This document shows positions 30,064 through 55,348 of a DNA stretch of 64,000 bases, one piece after another. This DNA comes from Syntrophales bacterium (lineage in GTDB: Bacteria; Desulfobacterota; Syntrophia; Syntrophales; PHBD01), in contig DAOSEM010000006.1 of assembly GCA_035363115.1 (NCBI GenBank), positions 16,244 to 80,243 on the forward strand, given 5' to 3'. Below the pieces are notes generated by a model, which saw nothing but the letters and a program-made list of their open reading frames with translations, did no database searches and had not been told where the DNA came from. The translations under genes and the position numbers were made by a program. Each line of letters starts with the position of its first letter. The first letter of the stretch is position 1.

Positions 30064-30118
30064 ACTTCATCGATTTGTAACCCATTTGTCATGATTCTGT
30101 AACAATCCGCGCTTAGAG
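30064..30118 (+). promoter_or_regulatory. Candidate double Pho box plus -10 upstream of the 4HB-pit pair
   Basis: ACTTCAT cgat TTGTAAC ccat TTGTCAT gatt CTGTAAC aatccgcg CTTAGAG. Four 7-mers lie on an exact 11-bp register. Confidence 0.6.
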
Positions 30119-33980: not shown

Positions 33981-35039
33981 TTACCGTCTACGCTTCAGCA
34001 GGGGGATTCCCTTCCAGGTGATTTTCCGGAGGTCCGCCTCGGCCTGGATCACGGCCGCCCCGGGCAGGGGGACATATTGAAGCTCCTCCGCATACTTCTG
34101 CCCTTCATGGGTCACCCAGTAAAGCAGGTTTACCAGCTCCTCGGCGTCTTTCCGTTTCTTCCCGGCCGGGTGGGACTGGTCCCGGAAGACCATGAGCCAG
34201 GTATATCCGACGACGGGATAGCCCTCCCGGGACGGGGTGTCCGTCAGCGACCGGCTGCCGTTGGAGCTTTTCGCCGCCTCGGCGGCCAGGGAGATGCTTG
34301 CCATGGTCGGTGCGACAAACCGGCCGGACCGGTTCGCCAGGTGCCCGATGGTCATGCTGTTGGCCATCGCGTAGATCAGCTCGACGTAACCGATGGAGCC
34401 GGACACCTCCCTCACCAGGCCGGCGACGCCGGCGTTGCCGCCGGTGCCGCGCCCGACGGGCCAGCGGAGGATTTTTCCGGTGCCCATGGCCGCTCGCCAG
34501 GCCGTGTCGACTTTCGACAGGTATTCGCTCAGGATGTACGTCGTCCCGCTCTCATCCGACCGGTGGATCACCTGGATCGGCAGATTCGGAAGAGGAACGT
34601 TCGGGTTGAGGGCCGCAATCCCCGGGTCGTTCCAGGCGGTGATACGACCGAGAAAGATGCCCGACAGAACCTGCGCTGTAAACCGGAGCTGCGGATTCCC
34701 CGGAAGGTTGTAGACGACGGCCACGGCGCCGATGCAGGTCGGAATCCGGACGAACTTTTCTCCGGATATCCCCTCCTCCCCGGAGGAGGCGATGTCGGTA
34801 CCGGCGAAATCCACATCCCGGGCCAGGAGCTTCCGGACGCCCTTGCCGGAACCGGTTCCCTGATAGAGAATTTCAACCCCCGTCTGGAGTTGGTACTGCT
34901 CGAAAATCTTCAGGTAGAACGGCAGGGGGAACGTTGCGCCCGCACCCTTGAGCGTTACGGAGGCGCCGGAGACGCTTCCCGGAGAGAGGAGCGCAAAGGC
35001 CAAAAGGAGCAGGATTCCGCACACGCTTCGACGGTTCAT
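33981..35039 (-). CDS. pstS: Phosphate ABC transporter substrate-binding protein (PstS paralog)
   Basis: The internal ATG at 35037-35039 gives the signal peptide MNRRSVCGILLLLAFALLSPGSVSG. This is followed by VTLKGAGATFPLPFY and GTGSGKGV. Confidence 0.88.
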   Translation of the reverse strand: MNRRSVCGILLLLAFALLSPGSVSGASVTLKGAGATFPLPFYLKIFEQYQLQTGVEILYQGTGSGKGVRKLLARDVDFAGTDIASSGEEGISGEKFVRIPTCIGAVAVVYNLPGNPQLRFTAQVLSGIFLGRITAWNDPGIAALNPNVPLPNLPIQVIHRSDESGTTYILSEYLSKVDTAWRAAMGTGKILRWPVGRGTGGNAGVAGLVREVSGSIGYVELIYAMANSMTIGHLANRSGRFVAPTMASISLAAEAAKSSNGSRSLTDTPSREGYPVVGYTWLMVFRDQSHPAGKKRKDAEELVNLLYWVTHEGQKYAEELQYVPLPGAAVIQAEADLRKITWKGIPLLKRRR

Positions 35040-35066
35040 GAAAGGGCCTCCCGATTTGTCCTTACC

Positions 35067-35110
35067 GAATACCAGAGGATTGTGACCTCCAGGAGACACT
35101 GCTGTGAACG
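35067..35110 (-). promoter_or_regulatory. Weaker candidate Pho box upstream of the PstS paralog
   Basis: The minus strand reads CGTTCAC agca GTGTCTC ctgg AGGTCAC aatcctct GGTATTC. Three 5/7 matches to CTGTCAC lie on an 11-bp register in the 73-bp gap. Confidence 0.4.
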
Positions 35111-35112
35111 TT

Positions 35113-36102
35113 TCATGAATCCGCTTCCCTTTTGAGGATGTGACCGATGACGGCCTTCTCGACTTCTCTCCAGGCATTCCGTCCCATGGCCGCCTCGTCG
35201 ATGACGAGATGATGGGACGTCGCAGCCGCCACGTTCCCGTCTTTCGCGACGGCGAGAACGCGCCAGCGGCTGAGCCCCCTGACGGTCATGAATTCCCGGA
35301 TCTTTTCCGTGGAGATGAACTCATCCCCCGGGTCGATCAGGACCAGGGTCGGGACGTTCAACCTGGGGCCGGCGCCAGCTTCCACGCGCCCGATCGCCTC
35401 GAAGAGAGCCCTGTAGGCGGCCATGGGAGTGCCGTCGTTTGCCCGGTACCACCGGGGAGACAGGCTGTCGATGACCAGGCTTGGAAAGGGGGTCAGGAAT
35501 TTCAGGAGGTGGGCCTCGATCTTGACGGACAGTGCGGGAGCGAAGAGAACCATCCGCCGGACGTCCGAACCGGCATTCGTCAGGACGAGATCGCAGCCCA
35601 GGAGGCCGCCGAGGGAATAACCGACCAGGAAGAGGGGAACCCTGTTCCGGTCGGCCCGGATCCCCGCCTTCCGGCAGGCGTTCATGACCTCCCGCTGCCA
35701 GACCGGGTATGAAACGGTGCGGAAGGTTTCCAGGCGGGCCGCCTCCGCGGTCAGGCCGCCGGAGGGTTCATAATTGTCGCCGTGTCCGGAGAGCGAAACG
35801 TTCAGGACGTCGATGCCGGCGCGATTCAGGGCCGCAATAATGTATCCCATGCGCTCCGGCTTCAGGTTGAGGCCGTGGATGACGACGGCGACGCCCCTTC
35901 GTTTCACGAAGCGCTCTTTCAGAAACCAGCCGGAGGAACGATCCCGATCGTCCTGCGCCTGCTGCGTATCCGGAGGGGTCATCCGCCCGGGAAGTCGGTC
36001 GTGGGACGGTTCCCGGCAGAAAACGAACACGGAGACAAGTACGAGAACGACGGCCGCCGCCGGGAGAATGCACAACGATGCGCGCACACCGGACTCCCTC
36101 AT
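35113..36102 (-). CDS. Membrane-anchored alpha/beta hydrolase (lysophospholipase/monoacylglycerol-lipase-like)
   Basis: N-terminal TM helix, HGLN oxyanion region and the nucleophile elbow VGYSLGG. The ATG overlaps the upstream stop (ATGA). Confidence 0.8.
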   Translation of the reverse strand: MRESGVRASLCILPAAAVVLVLVSVFVFCREPSHDRLPGRMTPPDTQQAQDDRDRSSGWFLKERFVKRRGVAVVIHGLNLKPERMGYIIAALNRAGIDVLNVSLSGHGDNYEPSGGLTAEAARLETFRTVSYPVWQREVMNACRKAGIRADRNRVPLFLVGYSLGGLLGCDLVLTNAGSDVRRMVLFAPALSVKIEAHLLKFLTPFPSLVIDSLSPRWYRANDGTPMAAYRALFEAIGRVEAGAGPRLNVPTLVLIDPGDEFISTEKIREFMTVRGLSRWRVLAVAKDGNVAAATSHHLVIDEAAMGRNAWREVEKAVIGHILKREADS

Positions 36103-36872
36103 CGGGTGGAAAAGAAGATATCGCCGATGTGCCCCTCCGCCTCACTGCCGGTCTTGTGGGTGTTGATGAACAGAAGAATCCCTTCCGCGGGCGGCGGCTC
36201 GCCGAGTCCCAGGTCACGGTACAGCGCCGACGCATCCTTCAGGACGTCCCGCTTTTCCGTCACCCGGGCTCCGAGCGGGTCCGTCCGGTTGCGCAGGACG
36301 ATGTACCGGACCCGCTTCATCGACGGCTGGGGGCTGGATGTCACGAGGCCCTTCGGCGCCTGGTTCTCCCACACATAGGCGAGGGCGGTCCTGGAAAGCC
36401 GCCCGTTGAGACCTCTCCCCGGGAAAACGACATACAACTGAAGGGCCTGGTCGTCCGTCTCGCGGTGCCGGACATCCCCACCCCGGGGAAGGCGGGTGGC
36501 CATCCAGGTCCATTGCAGGCAGGGAAATTCCCGGAGGTCGACGTTGATTTTCTTCCGGATGCCCCAGGCCATGTCGCCCCGGCTCGCCAGGCGCAGCCGG
36601 AATCGTCCGCCCTGCTCTTCCAGGACCGGCTCCGGCTCTCCCCGGTAACGCTGGACCTGCCAGCCCGCGGGGACCCCCCTCGGCCCGGCCGGATCCGGAA
36701 CCATCCGGATTTCCAGCTTCTGCGTTTCCCGGGAGTCCCGCGGCGGCCCGGCCGATGCAGGCTCCCATCGGGAAACAAGCAGGACGACAGCAGCCACGGA
36801 AGCCCAGAAGACCAGCCCGGACGGGCTTCTCCGCAGTCGCTCCCGGAGTCCGAGGCGCGGGGTCAAGATCAT
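36099..36872 (-). CDS. DUF3047-like exported protein of unknown function
   Basis: 257 aa with a signal/TM segment. DDQALQLYVVFPG...ALAYVWEN resembles DUF3047; the family call is from memory and has low certainty. ATGA overlaps at both ends. Confidence 0.65.
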   Translation of the reverse strand: MILTPRLGLRERLRRSPSGLVFWASVAAVVLLVSRWEPASAGPPRDSRETQKLEIRMVPDPAGPRGVPAGWQVQRYRGEPEPVLEEQGGRFRLRLASRGDMAWGIRKKINVDLREFPCLQWTWMATRLPRGGDVRHRETDDQALQLYVVFPGRGLNGRLSRTALAYVWENQAPKGLVTSSPQPSMKRVRYIVLRNRTDPLGARVTEKRDVLKDASALYRDLGLGEPPPAEGILLFINTHKTGSEAEGHIGDIFFSTR

Positions 36873-38746
36873 CCCGCCTCTCGGCCTCCGTATCCCTCAT
36901 AGTGCAGGGTGTCCGCGCCGCCGTAGATCCGCTGTTCGAAGAGGAATCCGCTCCGGCCGGCCTCGCGGGTCATCTCCTTCACCTTCTTCTTCAGGGACGC
37001 CGCCACGACGGAAAACAGGGCCGGGTGCGGATCCACCCAGACGCGCCGGCTGTCGACGATGGCAATGCTGATCGTCGACAGGGGCGCCTGGAAGGAGTTC
37101 CCCTGCCGGTCCCGGATGTCCATGTATCCCTGCCGGACATGCTCCTCCCGGAACAGCGCCATCTTCTCCCGGTCGAAGGCCTCGCACATCCTCCGAACCG
37201 CGTCGTCATCCACAATCCCGGGACACACAATGACGAAATCGTCTCCGCCGATGTGCCCGAGCCGGGAACCAGCCGGAAGCGACGGGAGGCTTTCCGAGAG
37301 GACCTTCGCGGTCAGGCGCAGCATTTCGTCGCCCATGAGAAAGCCGTATACATCGTTGAATCCCTTGAAGTTGTCCAGATCGGCGTACAGGATGGAGTAG
37401 GCCGGCAAGAGCAGGGCGTCGTGGATCCAGTTGCGGATCATTTCGTTCCCGGGGAGGTTCGTCAGGGGATTCGCCCCCATGGCGCAGCGGACTTCCAGCT
37501 CGACGGCCTTCGTGATGATCTGCTTCATGGTGACGCTGCCCACGAATCGCTGGTTGCGGTCCACCACCAGCACCGGGTCGTAGAGATCCTCCTGGAAGCG
37601 GTCCATGGCCAGCTTGGCCAGGGTGGTCACGGTGATCCGGTCCTCCACCACCAGGGGGTTCCGCTTACAGACTGTTTCGACGGGCTTCTTCTGGAAGAGC
37701 TGGTAGCCGAAGGCCCCTCCCGTCTGGATGTAGAAGTGCTGCCGGGTGACGAGCCCGCCGATTTCCTCCCCGTCGAGGACCACCACGTGATCCAGGTGAA
37801 GGGAATTCTTGAACATGCCGTCCATCGCCCGGCAGTCGACCGTTCGTTTCGCTATCGTCATCGGCCGGATGACGAGGCTGCCGATCACCTCGTCCAGGTC
37901 CACTTTCGCGGAGTCGTAACGCTTGACCAGGGAGGCGATGGTCCTCTTCATTTCCTCCGTGGGTAGATACGGCTCCGCTTCGGGCAGGCCGAAGAGAAAC
38001 CCCTGGGCATAGCGGACGCCGAATTTCAGGAGGACGTCCAGCTCCTCCCACGACTCGACCCCCTCGGCGATGAGCTTGGCGTTTACGCTGCTGGCAAAGG
38101 ACGCCATCGATTTCAGAAGCTTCTGCTTGTAGTCGTGGAGGTGGACGTCCCGGACGATGGCCATGTCCAGCTTGAGATAATGGGGTGTCGAGGCGACCAG
38201 GGAGATCAGCCCCGAATAGCCGGAGCCGAAGTCATCCAGGGAAATCCGGAAGCCCTGGTTCACATAGTGCCGGATCAGACCGGCAAAGTGCTCGACGTCC
38301 GCAAAGGCCTTCTCTTCGGTGATCTCGATGACGATCTGCCCCTGGTCGAGGCCGTACTCGCTCAGCCGGACCTGGGTGAAGCGTTCGAGGAAGCGGGGAT
38401 CGCTGAAGATGTCCGGGCTCACGTTGATGAAATAGACGGCGGAGCGATAATCCTCCGGCAGGGCAGCGATCTTTTCCAGGGCGGCGATCCGGCAGGCCCT
38501 CTCCATTTCCCAGGTGCAGCCCCTTTTTGCGGCCTCGCCGAACATGGATCCGGGGCTGGCAAAGGGGGGATTTCCCCGGGACAGGACCTCAAACCCCAGG
38601 ACGCTTCCCGTCAGGAGGTCGAGGAGGGGATGAAAGTGGGGACGGGGGGCGACGCGGCCGATGAATTCGGCGATCCGGCTCTCGTCCGGCGACTCCAGGG
38701 TATTCCCGCGCCGGACATGCCGGCGGACGCTTGTCATGGATTCCAT
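36869..38746 (-). CDS. c-di-GMP turnover protein in the unusual order EAL - tandem CBS - GGDEF (GGDDF variant)
   Basis: EAL region: GFEVLSRG...YFINVS...IEITE...DDFGSGYS...KLD. It is followed by CBS-like repeats and RLGHIGGDDFVIV. I prefer the ATG at 38744-38746 (MESMTS, with GAGGGAAA upstream) over the track start at 38818. Confidence 0.82.
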   Translation of the reverse strand: MESMTSVRRHVRRGNTLESPDESRIAEFIGRVAPRPHFHPLLDLLTGSVLGFEVLSRGNPPFASPGSMFGEAAKRGCTWEMERACRIAALEKIAALPEDYRSAVYFINVSPDIFSDPRFLERFTQVRLSEYGLDQGQIVIEITEEKAFADVEHFAGLIRHYVNQGFRISLDDFGSGYSGLISLVASTPHYLKLDMAIVRDVHLHDYKQKLLKSMASFASSVNAKLIAEGVESWEELDVLLKFGVRYAQGFLFGLPEAEPYLPTEEMKRTIASLVKRYDSAKVDLDEVIGSLVIRPMTIAKRTVDCRAMDGMFKNSLHLDHVVVLDGEEIGGLVTRQHFYIQTGGAFGYQLFQKKPVETVCKRNPLVVEDRITVTTLAKLAMDRFQEDLYDPVLVVDRNQRFVGSVTMKQIITKAVELEVRCAMGANPLTNLPGNEMIRNWIHDALLLPAYSILYADLDNFKGFNDVYGFLMGDEMLRLTAKVLSESLPSLPAGSRLGHIGGDDFVIVCPGIVDDDAVRRMCEAFDREKMALFREEHVRQGYMDIRDRQGNSFQAPLSTISIAIVDSRRVWVDPHPALFSVVAASLKKKVKEMTREAGRSGFLFEQRIYGGADTLHYEGYGGREAG

Positions 38747-38840
38747 TTTCCCTCGTCTTGCCTTTCCCGGATCCCGGATCCGGAGGCGGAACCGCCGGAT
38801 GCACATGGAACGGCGCATCCGTTCCCGCCGGGGATGCGAT

Positions 38841-39899
38841 TCAGATTCGATCCTTCAGCACATGGATAGAGATATGGGAGGCCGTCACGCTGCTCCGGCC
38901 CGTGAGAACCATCAGGACCGTCCAGAGGGCCTGCAGGAAGAGAATCATCGACGGCTGCCAGAGCGCTTCCAGCCCCGCCAGGATGTCCGCCCGGCCGGGT
39001 GGGGCTTCGGCGGCGAACAGAAACGCCAGGCACAGGCCATAGCAGACACCGGCGAGGGCCATGACCTGGTAGGCGGAAAAGGATTGTCCGCCCCGGTAAT
39101 CGGCCCGCAGGAACTCGGACAGGACCCGCCAGACCTGGGTGACCGACAGGGTCAGGAGGAACGCGGCGGTCCCGTGCCCGTCCAGGAAAAGGAGGATCCC
39201 GATGAGTCCCGCCGTCGTGTACAGCAGGGACGTCATTCCCTGGACGGGGACCACGGGGCATCCCTCGAGCCCGTGTGCATAGGCGATCTTCTTCGTCTCC
39301 CCCCGGAATGTGAAACGGAAAGGCCCGAGGATCTTCCGGACAAGGGGAGGAACGTCGGAGAGCGGCCTCCCATAGCAGCAGCCGAAACTGATGCAGGCCA
39401 GCCGGCCGATTCCTTCTCCCAGGGCATAGGAGATCGACATCGCCGCGAGAACCGCCATGACGTCGACCGGCCGGCCCAGCAGGCGCTCCGATCCGGCGCC
39501 GGCCATGAGGACGACCCAGGGCGCGGCCAGCATCCCGACAAAGGAAGCGCCGCCCACGGTGAAGGTATGCCGCTTGCCTTCGACCCATGTCGCAATCATG
39601 CGCGATGCGGGCACGCACACGATCAGGACGGCCAGGACCATGCAGACGGTCAGCGGTGGTGTCACCCCCACGGAGGCCATCAGGACCAGCATGACCGCCA
39701 CGGCGAGGACGTACGCCGTCGCCGTGAAGAATCCGTACCAGGTCAGGTTCAGGCCGCTCCAGCGGCCGTCGGCCATCCGGTTCCCGGGGATGCAGGCGGC
39801 GATCTGCCAGGTTTCCGCGGGAAGCTTCCGGAAGCCCCAGAACAGGAGGGAATAGAGCGCACCTCCCAGGCCGAGGACAAAGACCGTGTTGCCGTTCAT
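38841..39899 (-). CDS. Lgt-family (prolipoprotein diacylglyceryl transferase-like) polytopic membrane protein
   Basis: The internal ATG at 39897-39899 (MNGNTVFVLGLGG) overlaps the DksA-like stop (ATGA). There are about 8 TM helices. GIGRLACISFGCCYGRP resembles the GR(I/L)G...GCCYG motif of Lgt-family proteins. The upstream 207 codons of the track ORF are read-through. Confidence 0.65.
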   Translation of the reverse strand: MNGNTVFVLGLGGALYSLLFWGFRKLPAETWQIAACIPGNRMADGRWSGLNLTWYGFFTATAYVLAVAVMLVLMASVGVTPPLTVCMVLAVLIVCVPASRMIATWVEGKRHTFTVGGASFVGMLAAPWVVLMAGAGSERLLGRPVDVMAVLAAMSISYALGEGIGRLACISFGCCYGRPLSDVPPLVRKILGPFRFTFRGETKKIAYAHGLEGCPVVPVQGMTSLLYTTAGLIGILLFLDGHGTAAFLLTLSVTQVWRVLSEFLRADYRGGQSFSAYQVMALAGVCYGLCLAFLFAAEAPPGRADILAGLEALWQPSMILFLQALWTVLMVLTGRSSVTASHISIHVLKDRI

Positions 39900-40402
39900 C
39901 CCGCGTTCCCCCCCAGGCCACTGCGATCTTTGGCCCTCCCCGGGCCTCCCGGGCCCGGTTTGCCCGTCTCCGGCATTCCCTCCCCGCGGGGGACCCGACG
40001 GGAGTCGGATGCCGTACGCGACCGGGACAAAATCCGCGAAGAATCCCCGTTCGATCCGATGTGCAATTCCGCGAGTTCCTGGCATTCCCGGCAAAGACGC
40101 GTCGTCGGTTCGGCAAGCAGCCTTCTCTCCGTAATGGTCGACCCGCAGATGACGCAGGTGCCGAAAAGCCCCTGGTCCATCCGCCGGATGGTTTCCTGGA
40201 TCTCCTGAATCGCGTTCCATTCCCTTCCGCGAATGGTCAACTCCACCTGGCGGTCGTGTTCGAGGGCCGCATGATCGATCGGGTCGGCACTGTGTACACC
40301 GTTGTTCTTCATGTCGGAGACGGTGCGGCTGGCGGTTCCCTGGAGCCTGTCCAGCCTGGCAAGCAACTGATTCCTGATCTGCTTGATCCGGGAAGCATTC
40401 AT
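39896..40402 (-). CDS. DksA/TraR-family C4 zinc-finger protein with G/P/R-rich C-terminal tail
   Basis: The acidic tip DPIDHA fits DxxDxA. The zinc finger is CVICGSTI...LCRECQ. There are ATGA overlaps at both ends. Confidence 0.8.
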   Translation of the reverse strand: MNASRIKQIRNQLLARLDRLQGTASRTVSDMKNNGVHSADPIDHAALEHDRQVELTIRGREWNAIQEIQETIRRMDQGLFGTCVICGSTITERRLLAEPTTRLCRECQELAELHIGSNGDSSRILSRSRTASDSRRVPRGEGMPETGKPGPGGPGRAKDRSGLGGNAG

Positions 40403-41484
40403 TCATCCGCCTCCTTATGGAACGTGTGCGACGAACGGCATGCCGTGCCGATCCTGACGCGGACCGGGATCTCCGTCTCCGTGAGGGGCTGTCCGAATCC
40501 GCGGGTATAAATGCTGTCAATGCCGGGTCGCTTCATGTTCCAGACGATGTCATCGTCGAAGCGGACCCGGTCCCGCTCGAAAAGAAGCACCACGGTGCTG
40601 CTGCCGGGGCGGAAGAGGCTTTTCGGGCGGCCCCGTTTCAGGAACCGGTCCGCACCGACGGACAGGGGAGCGTTGTATCGCTCCTCGCTGTAACACTGGA
40701 CGATGTCCCCGATCATCAGGGCGACGACCTCGATCATGGCCACCTTGCCCGCTCCGGTCCCGCCGGGCACGTCCGTGTCGATGACGGTGACGACCCTTTT
40801 GTTTTTCGAGAAGGGGCGCACCACGGAGACGACCGCCTCGGGATGGCAGGCGTGGTAATGCCCTTCGAGCGGATAGACGTCCAGGACCGTTCCCGCCGCC
40901 GGGACATGATTGTAGTGATACTTGTCCGGGGTGAGCCGGAAAACGGCGAAGGATCCCCCCTCGAAGGTCTCCCGCCATCGCCGCTTTCCCAGCAGCTCCT
41001 CCAGGTCGAAGAACTTGCCCTTGATGAAGAGACTGGAGTTCTCGTCGAGGGATCCCACCAGCATTCTCGAATCGGCCGGTGAAACGACGGCGGCGGGATC
41101 GTTCGGCGTCGGTCGGCACTCCCAGTAGCGGATCTTCCGCTCGAAGATTTTTTTCGGCGTATCGAGCCGGAGGGGCGGATCGAGGCATTCCCGCGGATCG
41201 ATTCCGGCTCTTTTCATGAATTCCTCCGGATCGGCCAGTCTCCCGGTCAGGAATCCCTCGTAGTTGAAGAATCCCAGGAGCGACGACATGCGCCGGCCCG
41301 TCAGGGCGCGGAACAGGAAGGGAGCATGCTCCCGGAGGGGCGAATAGAGAAAACGAATGACCCGGTCTCCATAGAGTCTCTCCGCCTGAACGGCGCGGCT
41401 GTCCCGGTCAATATACTGATGCGACGGGGACGGACTCGGGGTCGAAAGGGTCCACCAGGGGCTGGTCATGCAGTTTGTCTTCAT
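40399..41484 (-). CDS. psd: Phosphatidylserine decarboxylase family proenzyme (long, clostridial-type N-terminus)
   Basis: RPGSSTVVLLFE contains the G-S self-cleavage site, and the N-terminus reads YIDRDS...ERLYGDRVIRFLYS. The start is uncertain; the conserved N-terminus forces an overlap with the upstream gene's 3' end. Confidence 0.78.
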   Translation of the reverse strand: MKTNCMTSPWWTLSTPSPSPSHQYIDRDSRAVQAERLYGDRVIRFLYSPLREHAPFLFRALTGRRMSSLLGFFNYEGFLTGRLADPEEFMKRAGIDPRECLDPPLRLDTPKKIFERKIRYWECRPTPNDPAAVVSPADSRMLVGSLDENSSLFIKGKFFDLEELLGKRRWRETFEGGSFAVFRLTPDKYHYNHVPAAGTVLDVYPLEGHYHACHPEAVVSVVRPFSKNKRVVTVIDTDVPGGTGAGKVAMIEVVALMIGDIVQCYSEERYNAPLSVGADRFLKRGRPKSLFRPGSSTVVLLFERDRVRFDDDIVWNMKRPGIDSIYTRGFGQPLTETEIPVRVRIGTACRSSHTFHKEADE

Positions 41485-43867
41485 GGATCACAACCATCAT
41501 TAAGAATAAGAGTTTCAGCAGAACGGGTTCCGGGGCCTTCTCTTCCAGAACGCTCCGCCGCGCCAGATCCAGATATTCCAGCGGATCCCCGTTTCCCAGG
41601 ACGGCCCGCAGGGCCTCCCCGGATCCGGGCCTGAGAGGCCGGTCGGCCGCGCCCAGCGCCGCGACCTTCTCCTCCAGGAACCGGAAGGCCTCCGTCATGT
41701 GGCGGCCCCGCAGGTCCTGCCGGTAATAGGCCTCCGCGGCCCGATTGAAATCGCCCGCCGGCATGGCCAGCGGATGGGGGGCCTGCTTCCCCTTGAGGAC
41801 GGCCCGGGTGATCTTTCCCGCCGCCCCCAGCCGCTCCGGGTCCTCCAGGCGTCGCTCCAGGTCAAGGATGGTTTCCTCGAATCCCAGCATTTCGATCAGG
41901 TCCGCCGCTTCCTCCCGGAGGACGTTCACCAGGGCTCTCCGGTACTCCAGGTTGTGGACCCGGATGTATCCCGGATACCGCCGGCTGGGGCGGGTCCTCT
42001 CCGTGCGGGCGAGAATCGCCATGAGAAACCGGTTGGCGCTGTCCTGGCGAACGAAGAACGTCGGAATGCCGATGGCGGCGCCGAATAGGATCTGCCGGCG
42101 TTCACTCTCGATGACGGGCGAATCGGGAATCCGGTCGTGGGTAACCATTCCCCCGGCGATGTATTTAAAGGCGAGACAATACAGCAGGTTCTGGAGATTG
42201 ATCGCCCGGGCGGCGTCCTCCTCGAAGCTCTCGAAGAGGCTGTAATGCCGGGCCTCGAACCCGGAAAACCCCATCACATTGAACTCACGGAGCTTTTCCA
42301 GAAGGTAGAGGGACATCTTCGTGTCAAAGACGCCCAGGTCCTGGAGGTCGCGCTTCAGGCGCTCGCCATTGTGAAGCCGCCCGTCCAGGGCGGGGCTCCG
42401 CTCGGTGCTCAGGATCACCACCAGGTAATCGATCAGGCGGTAGTCTGGAATGAAGTCTCCCTTCAGGGAGAAGAGCCCGCGCAGGAAACGGTCCAGCCAC
42501 AGGGGGCCGAAGGGGGTGACGGGACGGCCTAACACCCGGATGCCGGCCTTCTTCTGCCAACGCCGCCAGAGCATCCGCAGATGGGTGTAGTCGAGCTCGT
42601 GGGGAAGGAATCCCAGGGCCTTTTCGGGGTGAAAATCAAGAAAATCCATCCGGTAGGGAGCGGCGCTGTATGTTCCTACGAACAGAGGAAGAAAGTGCTC
42701 GACGATTTTGACGGCGAGGTCCCCCAGGTACTTTTCACAGGCGGCATGGAAGCCGGAGGATGGATCCGCCATGGCGGCGCCGATCCGTCGGCTTCCCATG
42801 CTGACATGGGTACCGTTGTTGGCGAGGCTTACGTTTGAGGTGTTGGGGAGCGTCACGAGATTGCTGGTCACGACGCCCGCCTCGCGAAGCTTTCCCACCG
42901 CGTTGAGCTGGCTGCGGCTGAGCACCCGGTGGCACAGGTGCATGTACTGGTGCTTTTCCTCTCCCCTGCTCCATCCGGAAAGGCAGGGACTCATGAACAG
43001 CTCGCGGTAGAAGGCGTCGGAGATGCAGTCGTTCAGCCTTTTCTGGCGGATCGGCGGATGCGGCGAATAGAACAGCATGGCCTTCTGCCCGCCGGAGGTC
43101 AGGCCGAACCTCTCGTTGGCGAACTGGACGAGAAGCTGCGTGAAGAGGTACCGGACGGCCATTTCCGCGGCAACGGCCCGGCCCATGCCCTCTTCCGGCC
43201 GCAGGGCGGTGATGGAAAAGGAAAAGGTCTCCGGCGACGTGTTGTCGTTCAGGAAATGATCCAGGAGCGCCAGCCCGGTCTCACGGACCGGTCCGGGCAG
43301 GTCCCTTCCCGAATCCATCGCCTCCGCCAGCGCCAGCTTCAGCAGGTAGCTCACGGGCACCCGGAGTTCCTGCCGGTTCCGGTGCACACAGACAAACCGG
43401 TCCGCGTCGCTTCGGTTTCCCAGGGAGGGATTCTCCTTGTCCGCCAGGAGATCCCGCTGCCAGACCCTCCAGGCGAACGGCCCGAGGGAGTCGGCGGGGA
43501 AGCCGACCCAGCTGTTTTCCCACAACTGATCCGTCCCGGAATCCAGGTAGCTCTCCAGGTCCGTGACCACCCTCTTCTTCGTGTCCCCGGCGGCGGCCCG
43601 GCGGAGCATGTTGGTGAAATAATTGGAGGCCTCGATGGTCAGCGGCAGATCCACGTTGCTTCTCTGGCCGACCACGGCGGCCTGGAGCTCCGTCTCGCTT
43701 CCCGCCGTTGCATCGTAGCGGGCGAACGGAAGTGTCTCGACGTCCGTTCCGTTCACACCGGTGCGGACGCCCAGCATGGCCGTCATGCGGGCCTGCGACG
43801 GGATGCCGCTCGGTTCCTGGTCGATTTGAAAAACCTTGACGCCCGTGCTGTTCTGAAAACGGCTCAT
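41408..43867 (-). CDS. Large (819 aa) soluble protein of unknown function
   Basis: Uninterrupted ORF with balanced, non-shadow amino-acid composition. ATG at 43865-43867 is preceded by GCAGGAGGAG. I see no TM helix, signal peptide or recognisable catalytic motif. Confidence 0.8.
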   Translation of the reverse strand: MSRFQNSTGVKVFQIDQEPSGIPSQARMTAMLGVRTGVNGTDVETLPFARYDATAGSETELQAAVVGQRSNVDLPLTIEASNYFTNMLRRAAAGDTKKRVVTDLESYLDSGTDQLWENSWVGFPADSLGPFAWRVWQRDLLADKENPSLGNRSDADRFVCVHRNRQELRVPVSYLLKLALAEAMDSGRDLPGPVRETGLALLDHFLNDNTSPETFSFSITALRPEEGMGRAVAAEMAVRYLFTQLLVQFANERFGLTSGGQKAMLFYSPHPPIRQKRLNDCISDAFYRELFMSPCLSGWSRGEEKHQYMHLCHRVLSRSQLNAVGKLREAGVVTSNLVTLPNTSNVSLANNGTHVSMGSRRIGAAMADPSSGFHAACEKYLGDLAVKIVEHFLPLFVGTYSAAPYRMDFLDFHPEKALGFLPHELDYTHLRMLWRRWQKKAGIRVLGRPVTPFGPLWLDRFLRGLFSLKGDFIPDYRLIDYLVVILSTERSPALDGRLHNGERLKRDLQDLGVFDTKMSLYLLEKLREFNVMGFSGFEARHYSLFESFEEDAARAINLQNLLYCLAFKYIAGGMVTHDRIPDSPVIESERRQILFGAAIGIPTFFVRQDSANRFLMAILARTERTRPSRRYPGYIRVHNLEYRRALVNVLREEAADLIEMLGFEETILDLERRLEDPERLGAAGKITRAVLKGKQAPHPLAMPAGDFNRAAEAYYRQDLRGRHMTEAFRFLEEKVAALGAADRPLRPGSGEALRAVLGNGDPLEYLDLARRSVLEEKAPEPVLLKLLFLMMVVIHEDKLHDQPLVDPFDPESVPVASVY

Positions 43868-43893: not shown

Positions 43894-43926
43894 CCCTACA
43901 GAAGAAATGTGACAGGTCGATGAAGG
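43894..43926 (-). promoter_or_regulatory. Candidate Pho box plus -10 for the 819-aa gene operon
   Basis: The minus strand reads CCTTCAT cgac CTGTCAC atttcttc TGTAGGG. It ends about 25 nt before the RBS. Confidence 0.5.
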
Positions 43927-43972: not shown

Positions 43973-44027
43973 ACGTCACCAACCTTTCATCCCCCTGTCA
44001 TCCTCACGAGACAATTCTTCCATACAC
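43973..44027 (+). promoter_or_regulatory. Candidate double Pho box plus -10 for the HAD-phosphodiesterase gene
   Basis: ACGTCAC caac CTTTCAT cccc CTGTCAT cctc ACGAGAC aattcttc CATACAC. The first 33 nt are 29/33 identical to the pstS promoter site at 58136. Confidence 0.65.
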
Positions 44028-44143
44028 TGGATCCCGTCATTACCTCGCCGGACGCAACGGACGAACGGACCGTGACTCCCTGGGAGTCTCGACGACATCC
44101 GTGCGAACCCGTGCAGAACAAGGAAAAGGAGAACCATTTCGAA

Positions 44144-45628
44144 ATGAGTTCCTGGATGCAGAGACTGTCCCGGCATTACGAGCGGATGCGCGGCCGCCAC
44201 CCTGATGACGAGGTCATGATCCTCTTCGACATCGACGGCACGATCCTCGACTCCCGCTATATGATTCACCACACCCTCCAGTCCTACGACCGGGTGAACG
44301 GCACGGACTGGTTTGCGGATCTTGCCGTCGAGGATGTTACGGCCAGCGAGAGCCAGGTGGAGCAGCTTCTGGAATCGATGGGCATCCACAGTGCTTTGCA
44401 GGAGGGCATCCTGGCCTGGTACACGGAGCGGTGCTGGACACAGGACAATATCCTGCGATCCCATCGCCCTTTTGCAGGGGTCATGGACGTCATCCGCTGG
44501 TTCGAGATCCAGCCCCGGACCCACGTAGGTCTCAACACCGGCCGCCCCGAGCAGATCAGGCAGGAAACGCTGCTTTCGCTCAACAATATCGGCAGGGAAT
44601 ACAAGGTGAGGTTCCTGAGCGAACACCTATTCATGAACCGGCGCGGCTGGAACGAGGGGATCCTGGAGGAAAAGGCGGAGGGCATTCGCCATTTCCAGGG
44701 AAAAGGATACCGCGTGATCGCGTTTGTGGACAACGAACCGGAAAATCTGCAGGCGGTCGCAGAATTGGGCAACGACGAGATCCTGCTCCTGCACGCCCGC
44801 ACAATCTTCCGCTCCCGGCGCGATCAGCTCCCGTTGCGGACAGTGGAGGGCCGGGCTTACGACATCACGGATCTGGTACCGGAAAAATCGCTTCCGAGGC
44901 ACGTTCAGTTCGTCTGGCACGGCGTGAACGACGAGGCCAACCTGAGGCAGTTCATGGCCTCCGGCATCGAGTGGGCCGAATGCGACGTGCGTTTCGATCC
45001 GGACGGCGAGCGGGTTATCCTGCGCAACGACTCCTTCCGGGAAACGCCGTCCGATCCCGACGAGACGTTCATCCGACTCGAGAATATCCTCGAAAAATGC
45101 CGGGAAGGAGGGAAATCCCTCAAACTGGACCTGAAGGAAAACGGGCACCTGCTTGACCGCGTCCTCACGATCCTGAGAAACACGGGCATGCCGACGCACC
45201 GCGTTTGGTTCAACGGGACCGTCGAGATGCTGCAGAAAGAAGGTTTCCGCAAGCTTTCGGAGGCGTTCCCGGGATCCGTCATCCAGTGCCCCGTCGATTT
45301 TCTCGTTCCCCTCATCATTGGCGCCCCGACCCGGGCACTGTCCGTCCTGGACACCCTTCACGGCTGGGGCATCAACCGTTTCTCCGTCAACTGGAGGGCG
45401 TCCGAGAAGCACGACATCATCGACAGGCTGGAGAAGTGGGGCTACGAATTGAACATCTACAATGTGCCCGACCTCGAAGCATTCCTCAAGGCCGTCGTGC
45501 TGCTCCCCCGGTCGGTCACATCGGACTTCAACTTCCCGAAATGGCACTACTACGGACGGGGCCCCGGACCCGGGCAGAGGCATTTTGAATATTCCATCGT
45601 CCATGCACCGGAGATTCCGGCCTTCTGA
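44144..45628 (+). CDS. Fusion protein: N-terminal HAD phosphatase plus C-terminal PLC-like/GDPD-like (DUF2181/FAM151-like) phosphodiesterase domain
   Basis: ATG at 44144 follows AAGGAAAAGGAG. HAD motifs are ILFDIDGTILD, GLNTGRP and FVDNEPEN. The C-terminal FVWHGVND...GIEWAECDVRFDPDGERVILRND resembles the H...E.DV...D pattern of GDPD/PI-PLC-like barrels. The domain calls are from memory. Confidence 0.7.
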   Translation: MSSWMQRLSRHYERMRGRHPDDEVMILFDIDGTILDSRYMIHHTLQSYDRVNGTDWFADLAVEDVTASESQVEQLLESMGIHSALQEGILAWYTERCWTQDNILRSHRPFAGVMDVIRWFEIQPRTHVGLNTGRPEQIRQETLLSLNNIGREYKVRFLSEHLFMNRRGWNEGILEEKAEGIRHFQGKGYRVIAFVDNEPENLQAVAELGNDEILLLHARTIFRSRRDQLPLRTVEGRAYDITDLVPEKSLPRHVQFVWHGVNDEANLRQFMASGIEWAECDVRFDPDGERVILRNDSFRETPSDPDETFIRLENILEKCREGGKSLKLDLKENGHLLDRVLTILRNTGMPTHRVWFNGTVEMLQKEGFRKLSEAFPGSVIQCPVDFLVPLIIGAPTRALSVLDTLHGWGINRFSVNWRASEKHDIIDRLEKWGYELNIYNVPDLEAFLKAVVLLPRSVTSDFNFPKWHYYGRGPGPGQRHFEYSIVHAPEIPAF

Positions 45629-47260: not shown

Positions 47261-48184
47261 TCATGCGCACAGGTTTTGCAGGATTGCCTTCAGGTTGTCC
47301 ACGGACTCTCCCGTGTATTCGAAATAGCGGCTTCGCAGCTCCGAGATCAGGAGGCCGTCGTACGAGCCGGCAAAGGTCTTCAGGATCGCCTCGAAGGGGA
47401 TTCCGCCCCAGCCCACGGGCATATGGAGGTCGCCGCGTCCGAAGGGGACGAGATGGGTCTGCTGCTTTTCCGTGTAGTAGACGGGATGGCCGAAATTGTC
47501 GTGGATGTGCACGTGGCCGATGAATTCCCGGATCGCCGCCGTCTCTTCGACGGGATCGAAACCGTAGTGCGCCGCCGCCAGGAAGAGATGGCCGACGTCC
47601 AGGGTGATGCGGACATTCGGCCTGGCGACGCGGACGACCTGATCCAGGAGCACCCGGGGCTGCTCGGCGTAGCAGTACGGGGAATGGTACAGGTAGGGCC
47701 GCGCGTTCTCGATGCAGATGCAGACGGCGGGAAATTCGTCGGCGAGATCCCGGAGGGTCCGGGCCTCCCGTTCGAGCAGATCCCGTCTTTCCTCCTCCGA
47801 CAGCATCCGGCAGCCGGGAATGGCGAACTGCTCCTCGGACACGTACCGGCCGGCATGATAGACCGCCACACCGGCGCCGATCTCCGAGGCAAACTCCAGG
47901 CTGGACCGGAACACCCGTTCATGGAGATCCCGGTTGTCTTCGTCCATCAGGTTGAGCGGATTGGGCGTGTGAACGCTGTATGCAAACCCGTAATCCCATA
48001 GGATTGCCTTCATTTCCTCGAGCCGCCCGCGATGGAGGCGCCCGTGAACGACGGCGTCAAGTCCGTGAACGGGCAACTCCACCGCCTCCAGCCCCAGAGC
48101 GGCAAATTCGTCGAGGTCGCGGCGGAGCTTCTCCGGTTGCCCGTCGACCCGAATCTCGTCAATCTTGCTTCCCGTTTCAAGCAT
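47261..48184 (-). CDS. Xylose-isomerase-like TIM-barrel protein (sugar phosphate isomerase/epimerase / endonuclease-IV superfamily), last gene of the phn operon
   Basis: 307 aa; AVELPVHG...SVHTP...VYHAG...CIENA...LDVGHL...HIHDN is the typical metal-ligand pattern. The ATG at 48182-48184 overlaps the phnM 3' end by 8 nt. Confidence 0.82.
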   Translation of the reverse strand: MLETGSKIDEIRVDGQPEKLRRDLDEFAALGLEAVELPVHGLDAVVHGRLHRGRLEEMKAILWDYGFAYSVHTPNPLNLMDEDNRDLHERVFRSSLEFASEIGAGVAVYHAGRYVSEEQFAIPGCRMLSEEERRDLLEREARTLRDLADEFPAVCICIENARPYLYHSPYCYAEQPRVLLDQVVRVARPNVRITLDVGHLFLAAAHYGFDPVEETAAIREFIGHVHIHDNFGHPVYYTEKQQTHLVPFGRGDLHMPVGWGGIPFEAILKTFAGSYDGLLISELRSRYFEYTGESVDNLKAILQNLCA

Positions 48185-49334
48185 GTCGGAAAATCTCCCT
48201 TCCCCCGATGTATGTCTTTTGGACGCGGTGAATCCCGCCGTCGTTCCGGACCAGGACCAGGTCCGCCGCCTTGCCCTCCTCGAGCGAACCCGTCTCGCCG
48301 GCGATCCCGAGGGACCGCGCCGGCAGAAGGCTGGCCATGTTCACGGCCCGGTGCAGGGGAAGGATGCCCAGTCCGTCCAGCATGAAGACGGCGTGCAGTA
48401 TGCTCATGGGCGCGTAGTCGGAGCAGAGGATGTCGCCGCAGCCCTCCATGATCGCGTCCCGGGCGCTCAGGTTCCGCGCCTGGGAATTGCCCCGGACGAT
48501 GTTGGGCGCCCCCAGGCAGACGTAGAGGCCCTTCTCGCGGGCGGCGCGGAGGGCATCGAGATTGACGGGAAACTCGGTAATCCCGATGCCCTGTTCACAG
48601 AGCCACTCGATTTTGTCCCGGCAGTCGTCGTCGTGGGAGGCCATCGGAACGCCGAACCGGCGGCAGGACTGGACGATCCGCTCGATGTTCGCCTTCACGT
48701 GGCTGCGGGCCTTCCGCTTGCGGTCGATGATGGCGCGGATCTCCTCGTCCGTCTTTCCGTAGACGGCCTGATAGTAATTCCGGAAAGACACCACTTCGCG
48801 AAACTGCCCCTGTCCCGGCGAATGGTCCATGAGGGACAGGAGCTGGATCTTCCCGTTCTCCAGCAGCGACTCCAGTTCCGGCATCGCCGCGCCGTCGGTG
48901 ATCTCGAACCGGGCATGGACCCGGGTCCGAACATGAAGCCGCTCCGCCCGATCCCGGATCGTCGAGATGATGCCGGCGGCCATGCGGTTGGACCGGACCC
49001 CGATCTCGTCCTCTGCGAAGGAGATGGAATGGTAGATCGTCGTCACCCCGCAGGCGGCCAGCTTCTTGTCGAGCTCGTACAGGACGATGTCCAGGGGGAA
49101 GAAGGCGTTGGGCCGGGGCTCGATGTCCTTTTCCAGCGCGTCGCTGTGCATGTCGATCAGACCCGGCAGCAGCCAGCTGCCGTCTGCGTCGATGCGCGCT
49201 CCTCCGTTGCCGATGAATCCGTCGCGGATCTTATAGAGTCGTCCCTGGCGGATGGAAGCGGAGGCGCCGTCCAGGGTTCCCTCCGGCGTTACGATGCGGG
49301 CGTTTTCAATGATGAAATCGACCGGTTCTTTCAT
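48177..49334 (-). CDS. phnM: Alpha-D-ribose 1-methylphosphonate 5-triphosphate diphosphatase
   Basis: The internal ATG at 49332-49334 (MKEPVDFIIENARIV) overlaps the phnL stop. LPGLIDMHSD...SLMDHSPGQGQF...ASHDD...CSDY is the amidohydrolase PhnM pattern. Confidence 0.9.
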   Translation of the reverse strand: MKEPVDFIIENARIVTPEGTLDGASASIRQGRLYKIRDGFIGNGGARIDADGSWLLPGLIDMHSDALEKDIEPRPNAFFPLDIVLYELDKKLAACGVTTIYHSISFAEDEIGVRSNRMAAGIISTIRDRAERLHVRTRVHARFEITDGAAMPELESLLENGKIQLLSLMDHSPGQGQFREVVSFRNYYQAVYGKTDEEIRAIIDRKRKARSHVKANIERIVQSCRRFGVPMASHDDDCRDKIEWLCEQGIGITEFPVNLDALRAAREKGLYVCLGAPNIVRGNSQARNLSARDAIMEGCGDILCSDYAPMSILHAVFMLDGLGILPLHRAVNMASLLPARSLGIAGETGSLEEGKAADLVLVRNDGGIHRVQKTYIGGREIFRHA

Positions 49335-50119
49335 TTTCCGCCCTTTCCATTGCCGAGGTCGAGGACCCGATCGGCGACGGCATTCATGGAGGATCGGTCG
49401 TGGAAGACGCCGACCATGGCGGTTCCCTTCCCTTTCAGCTCCTTCAGCAGTTCGATGACGACCGTCCGGGAACGCCGGTCCAGCGACGCCGTGGGCTCGT
49501 CGAGCAGAAGCAGCCTGGGCTCCCAGATGACGGCCCGGGCAATGTTGATCCGCTGCTGCTCCCCCCCGCTGAATGTGGCCGGATAGGCGTCGTGGAGCTC
49601 CGCGGGAATGGACAGCCGCTCCAGCAGAACCGAGGCCCGGCGCCGGGCCTCTCCGGCGTCTTTCCCCAGATTGAGCAGAGGCTCGGCGACGACGTCTACG
49701 GCGGCGACCCGCGGGACGACCCGGAGAAACTGGGAAACGTACCCCATCTCGCGGCTGCGGATCCGGAGCAGGGTCTGTTCGCACCCGCCGGCCAGATTGA
49801 CCCGTCCGTGGCGGTCGGAGGCGAACCACACGTCGCCCGACGTGGGCAGGTAGGTCCCGTAGATGCACTTGAGAACGGAGCTCTTTCCCGACCCGCTTCG
49901 GCCGGCCAGGCCGAGAAACTCCCCCGGCGACAGCCGGAAAGACACGCCGCCGAATCCGTCGATGACCTTCCCGCCGAGAATGTGGAGCATAAACGTCTTG
50001 GACAGGTTGACGACTTCCAGCATTCTCAGGACGCCTTCTGAACCGGACGTCAAAGCCGGAGCGGCGGGCCGGGGATCCCTCCCTCCCGCCGGGGCCTCTT
50101 CCTTTTCCGGGCGCTTCAT
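49331..50119 (-). CDS. phnL: C-P lyase system ATP-binding protein PhnL
   Basis: GRSGSGKSS Walker A, FSGGEQQR signature and LLLLDEPT. Start is ATG 50119 (MKRPEK, 14 nt after the phnK stop) or ATG 50023 (MLEVVNLSK). Confidence 0.88.
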   Translation of the reverse strand: MKRPEKEEAPAGGRDPRPAAPALTSGSEGVLRMLEVVNLSKTFMLHILGGKVIDGFGGVSFRLSPGEFLGLAGRSGSGKSSVLKCIYGTYLPTSGDVWFASDRHGRVNLAGGCEQTLLRIRSREMGYVSQFLRVVPRVAAVDVVAEPLLNLGKDAGEARRRASVLLERLSIPAELHDAYPATFSGGEQQRINIARAVIWEPRLLLLDEPTASLDRRSRTVVIELLKELKGKGTAMVGVFHDRSSMNAVADRVLDLGNGKGGK

Positions 50120-50133
50120 GGATCCGCCTTTCT

Positions 50134-50970
50134 TCAAAGCTGTGAGCTGACCAGCAGCTGCGTGTATCCGTGCTGCGGGTCCTCGAAGATCCGGTCCGTC
50201 AGGCCCGATTCGACGACCCGCCCGTAACGCATGACCAGGGTGCGCTGGCACAGGAGGCGGATCACGCCCAGATCGTGGGACACCACGATCATGGCGATGC
50301 CGAGCTCCCGCTGAAGGCTGCGGATCAGGTCCAGGACGCGGGCCTGCACGGACAAGTCAAGGCCCGTCGTCACCTCGTCCAGCAGCAGCACCTGAGGGCT
50401 GTTGGACAGCGCCTTGGCGATCTGCACGCGCTGTTGCATCCCGCCGCTGAAGTTCGCCGGCGGCTCGTCCATCCGCTCCAGGGGTATTTCCGTGCGTGCC
50501 AGCAGGTCCGCGGCGCGTCCGCGGATCTTCGAGATGCTCCGCCAGCCCGCGGCCAGGAGCTTTTCGGCGATGTTGCCGCCGGAGCTGACCTGCATCCGGA
50601 GGCCCAGATAGGGATTCTGGTAGACGATCCCCATGTGGCGGCTCCGGACCTGACGCCGGTGGAACGGGCTCTGCCGCAGAAGGTTTCCCGCCGCGGCGTC
50701 CTGTCCGTTGTGCAGATAGATCTCCCCGGCCGTCGCCTCGTACTCGAAATGGATGAGCCGGACCAGGGTGCTCTTGCCTGAACCGCTCTCCCCCACGATG
50801 CCCAGCACCTCGCCGGGATGGATCTCCAGGGAGACGTTGCAGCAGCCCACGACGGCTCCGCAGCGGGAACAGCGGTTCCCCTCGTCCGCGGAAACGCCCC
50901 CGGGCAGGCAGTGCCCGCAGCCGTCCCCGAACAGCTTCGTAAGCCCGCGCACCTCGAGCAGCGGCTTCAT
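50134..50970 (-). CDS. phnK: C-P lyase system ATP-binding protein PhnK (with Cys-rich N-terminal insertion)
   Basis: The internal ATG at 50968-50970 (MKPLLEVRGL) overlaps the phnJ stop. Motifs are GESGSGKST, FSGGMQQR and HGYTQLLVSS. Confidence 0.9.
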   Translation of the reverse strand: MKPLLEVRGLTKLFGDGCGHCLPGGVSADEGNRCSRCGAVVGCCNVSLEIHPGEVLGIVGESGSGKSTLVRLIHFEYEATAGEIYLHNGQDAAAGNLLRQSPFHRRQVRSRHMGIVYQNPYLGLRMQVSSGGNIAEKLLAAGWRSISKIRGRAADLLARTEIPLERMDEPPANFSGGMQQRVQIAKALSNSPQVLLLDEVTTGLDLSVQARVLDLIRSLQRELGIAMIVVSHDLGVIRLLCQRTLVMRYGRVVESGLTDRIFEDPQHGYTQLLVSSQL

Positions 50971-52920: not shown

Positions 52921-52921
52921 A

Positions 52922-53518: not shown

Positions 53519-53519
53519 C

Positions 53520-54394: not shown

Positions 54395-54423
54395 GAGATT
54401 CCGGATGATTCCCTCGTCCACGG

Positions 54424-55281: not shown

Positions 55282-55348
55282 AATTCATCCGGGGGGTAGG
55301 GGGCGGGACACAGCCCGCCCCCTGCAGCAGGTACGAGAGGGGTCCCGG

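Follow-up and report, generated by a model that had tools for sequence, protein, structure and literature searches.

Does the Lgt-like gene at positions 38841-39899 (-) of this locus encode the housekeeping prolipoprotein diacylglyceryl transferase, or a relative with a different acceptor? The window analyzed here is a 64,000-nucleotide stretch of a Syntrophales bacterium contig. The original prediction held that the gene is an Lgt-family paralog outside any lipoprotein context, which may transfer diacylglyceryl to a non-protein acceptor or may simply liberate glycerol phosphate from phosphatidylglycerol (PG) during phosphate stress. Our analysis confirmed the observation and supports this interpretation, although a non-protein acceptor is supported only indirectly. 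The ORF starts at ATG 39899 and encodes a 352-aa protein with the motif GRLACISFGCCYGRP at residues 165-179. It matches Pfam LGT (PF01790) at 43.3 bits (gathering score 24.9, E 3.7e-11) over profile positions 9-239 of 240. The protein is polytopic: hydropathy shows 6-7 hydrophobic segments, and the AF2 model (pLDDT 87) has nine long helices, including an extra N-terminal helix (residues 3-25) and an extra C-terminal helix (residues 316-334). The only credible PDB match to this model was E. coli Lgt (5AZB; Foldseek probability 1.0, TM 0.43/0.52).

We next examined whether the residues important in canonical Lgt are retained. Neither a single-sequence search nor a family-profile search of PDB sequences found 5AZB at E <= 10, and hhalign against E. 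coli Lgt alone was insignificant. When a second canonical Lgt was added, hhalign gave 88% probability over 256 columns. The equivalents of E. coli Y26, G27, R143, G154, R239, E243, and R246, whose roles have been described (PMC4728403), are invariant in 32 members of the family, with Tyr55, Arg166, Gly177, Arg258, Glu262, and Arg265 among them, suggesting that the protein is probably catalytically active. The signature motif G-R-L-x-C/N-x-x-x-G-x-x-x-G (residues 161-178) is also present, and the head domain carries its own invariant FxGxTKKIAYA motif. In contrast, His103 of the HGGL motif, which is essential in E. coli, is replaced by Val, Ala, or Ile at the aligned position 121. Notably, a canonical Brocadia Lgt also lacks this His (it has Tyr), indicating that the residue is not universal. 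The same Brocadia Lgt has the GCFLNGCCFG variant of the motif, with Cys in place of N146 and E151. The three cysteines therefore do not by themselves mark the paralog, and they say nothing about a new acceptor.

Several lines of evidence argue against this being the housekeeping Lgt, a reading we consider very unlikely. Source databases name the protein prolipoprotein diacylglyceryl transferase, and the catalytic arginines are kept. However, it scores far below the equivalog models used for naming lgt (26.6 against a cut-off of 118.9 for TIGR00544; 23.1 against 334 for NF000778), and RefSeq names it only a 'family protein' in Desulfococcus and Desulfosarcina. On one Brocadia contig, a canonical Lgt (149.1 bits) lies 6.4 kb from the paralog. 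At least 579 species carry a relative, and the phyletic range is restricted. Within the 64-kb window, tblastn with E. coli Lgt found no other Lgt-like sequence, and none of the window ORFs scanned with Pfam is a lipoprotein-pathway gene. A search for defense systems with PADLOC gave no hits.

The genes surrounding the paralog form a conserved module, almost always arranged as an orphan protein of ~810 aa, then a phosphatidylserine decarboxylase (PSD)-like gene, then the Lgt-like gene. Here, the first gene (41408-43867 (-)) encodes a soluble 819-aa protein, which we call H819, with no Pfam, NCBIfam, PDB sequence, or PDB fold match. It lies upstream on the same strand in 58 of 59 related loci. 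The PSD-like pyruvoyl-type decarboxylase (40399-41484 (-)) is directly upstream of the Lgt-like gene in 70 of 74 loci. Its start is uncertain, with other gene callers giving 296 or 356 aa. It matches Pfam PS_Dcarbxylase at 135.7 bits, and Asp138, His190/His193, and the Gly-Ser-Ser cleavage site (294-296) are conserved. However, its best equivalog score is 150 against a cut-off of 371, and its fixed coupling to an Lgt-like gene suggests another substrate.

Between the PSD-like and Lgt-like genes lies a DksA-like ORF (39896-40402 (-)) encoding a 168-aa C4 zinc-finger protein with a DxxDxA-type tip (DPIDHA). DksA_N and zf-dksA_traR are both above Pfam cut-offs (46.9 and 40.9 bits), although the TIGR02420 equivalog score (89.3) is below its cut-off of 115.5. 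Its TGA overlaps the Lgt-like ATG as GGGATGAACGGC, and its start overlaps the stop of the PSD-like ORF by 4 nt. Interestingly, this coupling is lineage-specific. The DksA-like gene occupies this position in only about 20 of 83 related loci, where it is about 108-136 aa and ends 45-70 nt before the Lgt-like start, whereas here a 55-aa low-complexity tail reaches the ATG. Downstream on the same strand are an EAL-CBS-GGDEF protein (36869-38818 (-)), possibly in the same transcript; a DUF3047 protein (36099-36872 (-)) with an N-terminal hydrophobic segment, which overlaps both neighbors by 4 nt; a lysophospholipase-like alpha/beta hydrolase (Hydrolase_4; 35113-36102 (-)), also with an N-terminal hydrophobic segment, which follows the module in 4 loci; and, as the last gene of the run, the phosphate-binding protein PstS (33981-35177 (-), likely start near 35039; TIGR00975, 315.7 bits). 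A terminator and promoter scan of the operon was uninformative.

We then asked whether the operon belongs to the Pho regulon. A Pho-box-like 7-4-7 direct repeat, CCTTCAT-CGAC-CTGTCAC (43909-43926 (-), one mismatch), lies 42 nt upstream of the H819 start codon. Three tandem half-sites, ACGTCAC-CAAC-CTTTCAT-CCCC-CTGTCAT (43973-44001 (+)), face the divergently transcribed gene HAD518 (44072-45628 (+)), which encodes a protein of 505-518 aa with an N-terminal HAD phosphatase domain and an unassigned C-terminal half. Strikingly, the window contains 10 Pho-box matches against 2.24 +/- 1.43 expected (0 of 100 shuffles reached 10), and all ten lie before the PHO4 operon, this operon, HAD518, phnCDE, or pstS. 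A similar tandem KTCAY repeat lies upstream of H819 in 18 of 57 related loci, against about 1.1 expected. Pst, PhoU, or alkaline phosphatase genes lie within 10 kb in 35 of 83 loci, and 49 of 83 have some Pho-type gene. Although only about 40% of loci have Pst-type neighbors and only about a third show the Pho-box pattern we scanned for, these data strongly support the phosphate-stress component of the original prediction.

We also considered which side of the membrane the active site faces. Lys+Arg counts were 18.4 on the catalytic face and 1.5 on the other face, the opposite of E. coli Lgt (5 and 13), which has seven TM helices with the catalytic face in the periplasm. The active site is therefore predicted to face the cytoplasm, although this rests on the positive-inside rule applied to AF2 helix boundaries and not on experiment. 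Neither H819 nor the PSD-like protein has a signal peptide or TM segment. The retained catalytic core and the frequency of PstS neighbors could suggest a starvation-specific transferase that lipidates exported prolipoproteins such as PstS when PG is scarce, perhaps using another donor lipid. This is improbable, given that the charge bias places the catalytic face away from exported lipobox cysteines and that the fixed partners are cytoplasmic enzymes. Alternatively, the protein could lipidate H819, which has invariant cysteines C295 and C312, or the PSD-like proenzyme to anchor it to the inner leaflet. We regard this as more doubtful still, as there is no lipobox-like motif, no precedent, and no explanation for Pho control.

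Taken together, we propose, with a probability of roughly 0.5 in the absence of biochemical or expression data, that this divergent and probably active Lgt-family member is part of a phosphate-starvation operon and acts on the cytoplasmic face of the inner membrane, moving the diacylglyceryl group of PG onto a small cytoplasmic thiol, namely cysteine or a gamma-glutamyl-cysteine-type compound. This would make a phosphorus-free thioether lipid and release glycerol phosphate inside the cell for phosphate salvage; HAD518, found within 10 kb of the module in 10 loci, is a candidate phosphatase for this by-product. The PSD-like enzyme would remove an alpha-carboxyl, and H819 would form the amide bond or supply the acceptor, although H819 shows no detectable similarity to any ligase or known family. 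The donor, acceptor, product, and order of steps are all inferred.

Neighboring genes in related loci are consistent with lipid remodeling. A PHP-GT4 glycosyltransferase occurs in 14 loci, a Metallophos gene lies downstream in one locus, and a PmtA/OlsG-like lipid N-methyltransferase follows the Lgt-like gene in two loci, from Brocadia and Nitrospinae. One possibility, which we consider unlikely, is that the protein acts as a PG-specific lipase of phospholipase C/D type, cleaving PG to diacylglycerol (DAG) plus glycerol phosphate during phosphate starvation, with the DAG feeding the neighboring glycosyltransferase and no new thioether lipid being made. E. coli Lgt slowly hydrolyses PG to DAG in crystals (PMC4728403), HAD518 could dephosphorylate the released glycerol phosphate, and the Pho boxes and pst neighbors fit this reading as well. 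However, it does not explain the two fixed partners, and known remodeling systems already use a metallophosphoesterase for this step. Similarly unlikely is a head-group pathway that is not phosphorus-free, such as an alternative route to a PS/PE-like lipid or transfer of diacylglyceryl to a hydroxyl or amine acceptor. The intact catalytic residues of the PSD-like partner and the downstream N-methyltransferase are compatible with this idea, but making more phospholipid under Pho control would be counter-productive, and Lgt chemistry releases the phosphate-bearing head group. Like this operon, PlcP-Agt (glycolipids), BtaAB (the betaine lipid DGTS), and OlsBA/OlsF (ornithine lipids) are under Pho control, and they replace phospholipids with phosphorus-free lipids. 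No component is homologous, and here the diacylglyceryl group would be taken directly from PG by an Lgt-type alkyl transfer and not from free DAG or SAM chemistry.

Notably, an orphan product of suitable composition has been reported. Phosphate-limited Desulfatibacillum alkenivorans, from a related order, replaces PE, PG, and CL with glucuronosyl lipids and cysteine-containing aminolipids, the N-butyramide cysteine glycerolipids (BACys), for which no genes are assigned (Ding et al., 2024, PMC11181052). Their head group, C7H13O3N2S+, has a tentative, MS-based structure. The composition C7H14N2O3S equals 4-aminobutanoyl-cysteine, which is gamma-Glu-Cys minus CO2, and the fragment C7H13N2O3S+ calculates to 205.0641 against 205.064 reported. 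Thioether formation, amide bond formation, and decarboxylation would therefore match the three genes, although this shows compatibility only. Desulfatibacillum was not among the best 120 hits in any of three searches, including one with a Desulfobacterales profile, which does not show absence but leaves the link inferred. In our literature searches, no paper linked the Lgt family to aminolipids, PSD, or phosphate starvation. The specific proposal that the H819/PSD-like/Lgt-like operon is the missing pathway for the cysteine aminolipids that anaerobic Thermodesulfobacteriota make when starved of phosphate remains tentative. If correct, the Lgt-like protein would be the first Lgt-family enzyme shown to face the cytoplasm and to alkylate a small-molecule thiol rather than a protein.

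Lgt is treated as a single-purpose, essential, periplasm-facing enzyme and is pursued as an antibiotic target. A large, conserved subfamily with opposite orientation and a non-lipoprotein role would widen the chemistry known for this fold. This work also flags an abundant 810-aa protein family with no known fold or domain as a probable lipid head-group enzyme. Finally, such a subfamily would give a concrete gene set for an orphan class of phosphorus-sparing membrane lipids in sulfate reducers, syntrophs, Geobacter relatives, and anammox bacteria, organisms that dominate phosphorus-poor anoxic sediments.

The minus-strand ORF at 38841-39899 starts at ATG 39899 and encodes a 352-aa protein with GRLACISFGCCYGRP at residues 165-179. 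The sequence ...GGGATGAACGGC... shows that the TGA of the upstream DksA-like ORF (39896-40402, minus strand) overlaps this ATG, and the DksA-like start in turn overlaps the stop of a PSD-like ORF (40399-41484) by 4 nt. The three proteins were placed by Pfam in LGT (43.3 bits), DksA_N plus zf-dksA_traR, and PS_Dcarbxylase (135.7 bits). The original prediction, which described an Lgt-family membrane protein coupled to a DksA-like gene and located two genes downstream of a PSD-type enzyme, is therefore correct as an observation. Upstream on the same strand is an 819-aa ORF (41408-43867), here called H819, that has no family match. Downstream on the same strand are four tightly packed genes encoding an EAL-CBS-GGDEF protein (36869-38818), a DUF3047 protein, an alpha/beta hydrolase and PstS. 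The EAL-CBS-GGDEF gene lies immediately after the Lgt-like gene and may share its transcript, which hints that c-di-GMP signalling is tied to the phosphate response in this organism. The DUF3047 protein and the lysophospholipase-like alpha/beta hydrolase (35113-36872, minus strand) both have N-terminal hydrophobic segments and overlap by 4 nt. They follow the module here and in a few relatives, and may be further lipid-remodelling components.

The Lgt-like protein, which is 100% identical to one from a Syntrophales MAG, belongs to a large and well-conserved family of about 350-aa proteins. The best 120 hits share 47-79% identity, and mean column identity in a 32-sequence alignment is 60%. A pattern scan of one genome per species found at least 579 species with a relative. 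Most are Syntrophales/Smithella, Desulfobacterales, Desulfuromonadales/Geobacter and Syntrophobacterales, but MAGs labelled Ca. Brocadia, NC10, Nitrospinae and Acidobacteriota also carry it. Cultured carriers include Desulfonema ishimotonii, Syntrophus gentianae, Desulfuromusa kysingii, Desulfosarcina alkanivorans, Citrifermentans bremense, Desulfococcus, Desulfosarcina ovata and D. variabilis.

We next examined how this family relates to canonical Lgt. Homology is real: in addition to the Pfam hit, which is above threshold, a confident AF2 model (pLDDT 87, pTM 0.89) has E. coli Lgt (5AZB) as its only credible PDB match (prob 1.0, TM 0.43/0.52, 16% identity), and hhalign against a two-sequence canonical profile gives 88% probability over 256 columns. 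In that alignment, Y55 and G56 of the Lgt-like family correspond to E. coli Y26 and G27, G116 and G117 to G98 and G99, R166 to R143, G177 to G154, R258 to R239, E262 to E243, and R265 to R246. These residues are invariant in the family and form the catalytic and PG-binding core described by Mao et al. (PMC4728403). In contrast, E. coli H103 is lost (Val, Ala or Ile at position 121), and G145, N146 and E151 are changed to A168, C169 and C174, respectively. These differences from E. coli must be read with care. The canonical Lgt of a Brocadia MAG passes the equivalog model, yet it has GRIGCFLNGCCFG and a Tyr at the His103 position. The cysteine-rich motif highlighted in the original prediction is therefore a normal Lgt variant.

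Several results argue against the possibility that this protein is a housekeeping Lgt. It scores 26.6 bits on TIGR00544 against a cut-off of 118.9, and 23.1 on NF000778 against 334. A profile of the family does not find 5AZB at E <= 10, and RefSeq names the isolates' proteins only 'family protein'. Notably, one Brocadia contig (L055; 2752-3621 (-) and 11122-12153 (+)) carries a canonical Lgt, which scores 149.1 bits on TIGR00544, 6.4 kb from the paralog, which scores 24.6 bits. No second Lgt is present within the 64-kb window.

The Lgt-like gene is part of a fixed three-gene module. In 83 related loci, the PSD-like gene is directly upstream on the same strand in 70 of 74 loci with enough flank, and H819 is upstream in 58 of 59. 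The DksA-like gene sits between the PSD-like and Lgt-like genes only in about 20 Syntrophales/Smithella-type loci. It has a DPIDHA tip motif and a C4 zinc finger, its last 55 residues are low-complexity and absent from relatives, and only here does it run into the Lgt-like start codon. The PSD-like family keeps Asp138, His190/His193 and the Gly294-Ser-Ser site, the residues expected for self-cleavage to a pyruvoyl enzyme, although it still scores well below the PSD equivalog cut-offs. H819 is very conserved (69% mean column identity, and about 60% identical across orders) but is a true orphan, with no Pfam, NCBIfam or PADLOC hit, no PDB sequence hit and no Foldseek PDB hit. An exhaustive search of 1.84 billion representatives returned only 877 matches at E <= 0.001. 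The AF2 model of H819 is only moderate (pLDDT 66), and the most conserved stretch (residues 290-545), in the central part, is the part that could not be modelled.

The genomic setting provides support for control by phosphate starvation. The region at 30-64 kb of the window is a phosphate-acquisition island containing a PHO4 transporter, a hybrid sensor kinase, PstS, PhoH, C-P lyase genes (PhnG) and phnCDE, a PhoB-like regulator and a second PstS. Its C-P lyase/phosphonate cluster (47261-57070) includes a xylose-isomerase-like TIM-barrel (AP_endonuc_2) protein at 47261-48184, PhnG at 53520-53960, and phnE/phnD/phnC-like genes at 54424-57070 on the minus strand, followed by the PhoB-like regulator (57241-58128) and the second PstS (58190-59068). 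A search for the classical, E. coli-like Pho box (CTKTCAY-N4-CTKTCAY, up to 2 mismatches) gave 10 matches, compared to 2.24 +/- 1.43 in shuffled sequences, and 0 of 100 shuffles reached 10. Strikingly, all ten fall in five promoter regions, often as three or four half-sites in tandem: before the PHO4 operon (30086-30103), before the H819 operon (43909-43926, minus strand, 42 nt from the H819 start), before a divergent gene termed HAD518 (43973-44001), before phnCDE (57172-57229), and before the second pstS (58136-58175). Together these sites define a compact predicted PhoB regulon. HAD518 (44072-45628, plus strand) is a 505-518-aa protein with a weak N-terminal HAD phosphatase match and a C-terminal half of about 270 aa with no family hit. 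In relatives, tandem KTCAY half-sites 10-12 bp apart lie within 250 nt upstream of H819 in 18 of 57 loci, against about 1.1 expected.

To identify other genes associated with the module, we clustered all neighbours within 10 kb. After the core, the commonest were a sensor kinase (24 loci), PstB (22), PstS (21), a PhoB-like regulator (20), PstC/A (18), PhoU (15), a PHP-GT4 glycosyltransferase (14), PhoH (12), HAD518 (10) and alkaline phosphatase (8). In all, 35 of 83 loci have a Pst, PhoU or alkaline phosphatase gene nearby, whereas a rough estimate from genome size suggests that about 1% would be expected by chance. The proposal of a role in phosphate stress, made in the original prediction, is therefore well supported. 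The PHP-GT4 protein, exemplified by 834-3278 (-) in related locus L005, is an approximately 814-aa fusion of a PHP (histidinol-phosphatase-like) domain with a GT4 glycosyltransferase. It recurs next to the module, often with a radical-SAM gene, and is a candidate glycolipid (glucuronosyl-DAG) synthase for phosphate starvation. In two other related loci that were scanned (L049, 2643-3191; L029, 11107-11619), a small DUF2062 membrane protein follows the Lgt-like gene on the same strand, and the two ORF clusters to which these belong cover 7 loci.

Interestingly, the predicted topology of this family is inverted relative to that of E. coli Lgt. The model has two helices that E. coli Lgt lacks, at residues 3-25 and 316-334. 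We counted Lys+Arg in the loops of 32 family members. The side carrying the signature motif, the arms and the head domain, which is the periplasmic, catalytic side in E. coli Lgt, has 18.4 Lys+Arg on average in this family (minimum 14), whereas the opposite side has 1.5 (maximum 3). E. coli Lgt shows the reverse, with 5 periplasmic and 13 cytoplasmic, and a manual count for the Brocadia canonical Lgt gives about 10 and 17, in the same direction as E. coli. By the positive-inside rule, the catalytic face of this family is predicted, though not measured, to lie in the cytoplasm. This orientation fits H819 and the PSD-like protein, which have no signal peptide or membrane segment, and argues against exported prolipoproteins as acceptors.

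These observations suggest a possible mechanism. Lgt is known to displace sn-glycerol-1-phosphate from PG with a thiolate, forming a thioether, and PSD-type enzymes decarboxylate an alpha-amino acid head group on a lipid. We infer that, under PhoB control, the Lgt-like enzyme uses PG on the inner leaflet and a small cytoplasmic thiol to produce a phosphorus-free S-diacylglyceryl lipid. Glycerol phosphate would be released inside the cell, where a phosphatase can recover phosphate, and the Pho-box-controlled HAD518 is a candidate for that step. We place the probability of lipid remodelling with a non-protein acceptor at about 0.5.

A matching orphan product exists. Phosphate-limited Desulfatibacillum alkenivorans was reported to replace PE, PG and CL almost completely with glucuronosyl glycerolipids and new 'N-butyramide cysteine' glycerolipids that have a C7H13O3N2S+ head-group fragment, and no genes are assigned (Ding et al. 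2024, PMC11181052). That composition equals 4-aminobutanoyl-cysteine, which is gamma-glutamyl-cysteine minus CO2. Three steps would be needed (thioether formation, amide formation and alpha-decarboxylation), and these map onto the three fixed genes. The intermediate would be anionic and the final lipid zwitterionic, in parallel with PS and PE. Assignment of the module to this specific pathway nevertheless remains tentative, since Desulfatibacillum could not be shown to carry the operon, H819 cannot be shown to be a ligase, and the published structure is itself tentative. The genomic context provides two further observations that fit. The PHP-GT4 neighbour would fit the co-occurring glucuronosyl lipids, and a PmtA/OlsG-like lipid N-methyltransferase directly follows the Lgt-like gene in the Brocadia and Nitrospinae loci (together with a GT4 fragment in the Brocadia locus), which fits an amine-bearing lipid product.

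No paper in the literature searched links the Lgt family to aminolipids, PSD or phosphate starvation. Overall, the protein is a member of the Lgt superfamily that differs from canonical Lgt in equivalog score and predicted topology, and a relative's contig carries a separate canonical Lgt. A non-housekeeping role linked to phosphate starvation can be assigned with high confidence. We regard the protein as a probably Pho-regulated and cytoplasm-facing Lgt-family transferase within a conserved, uncharacterised operon that may function in lipid remodelling.
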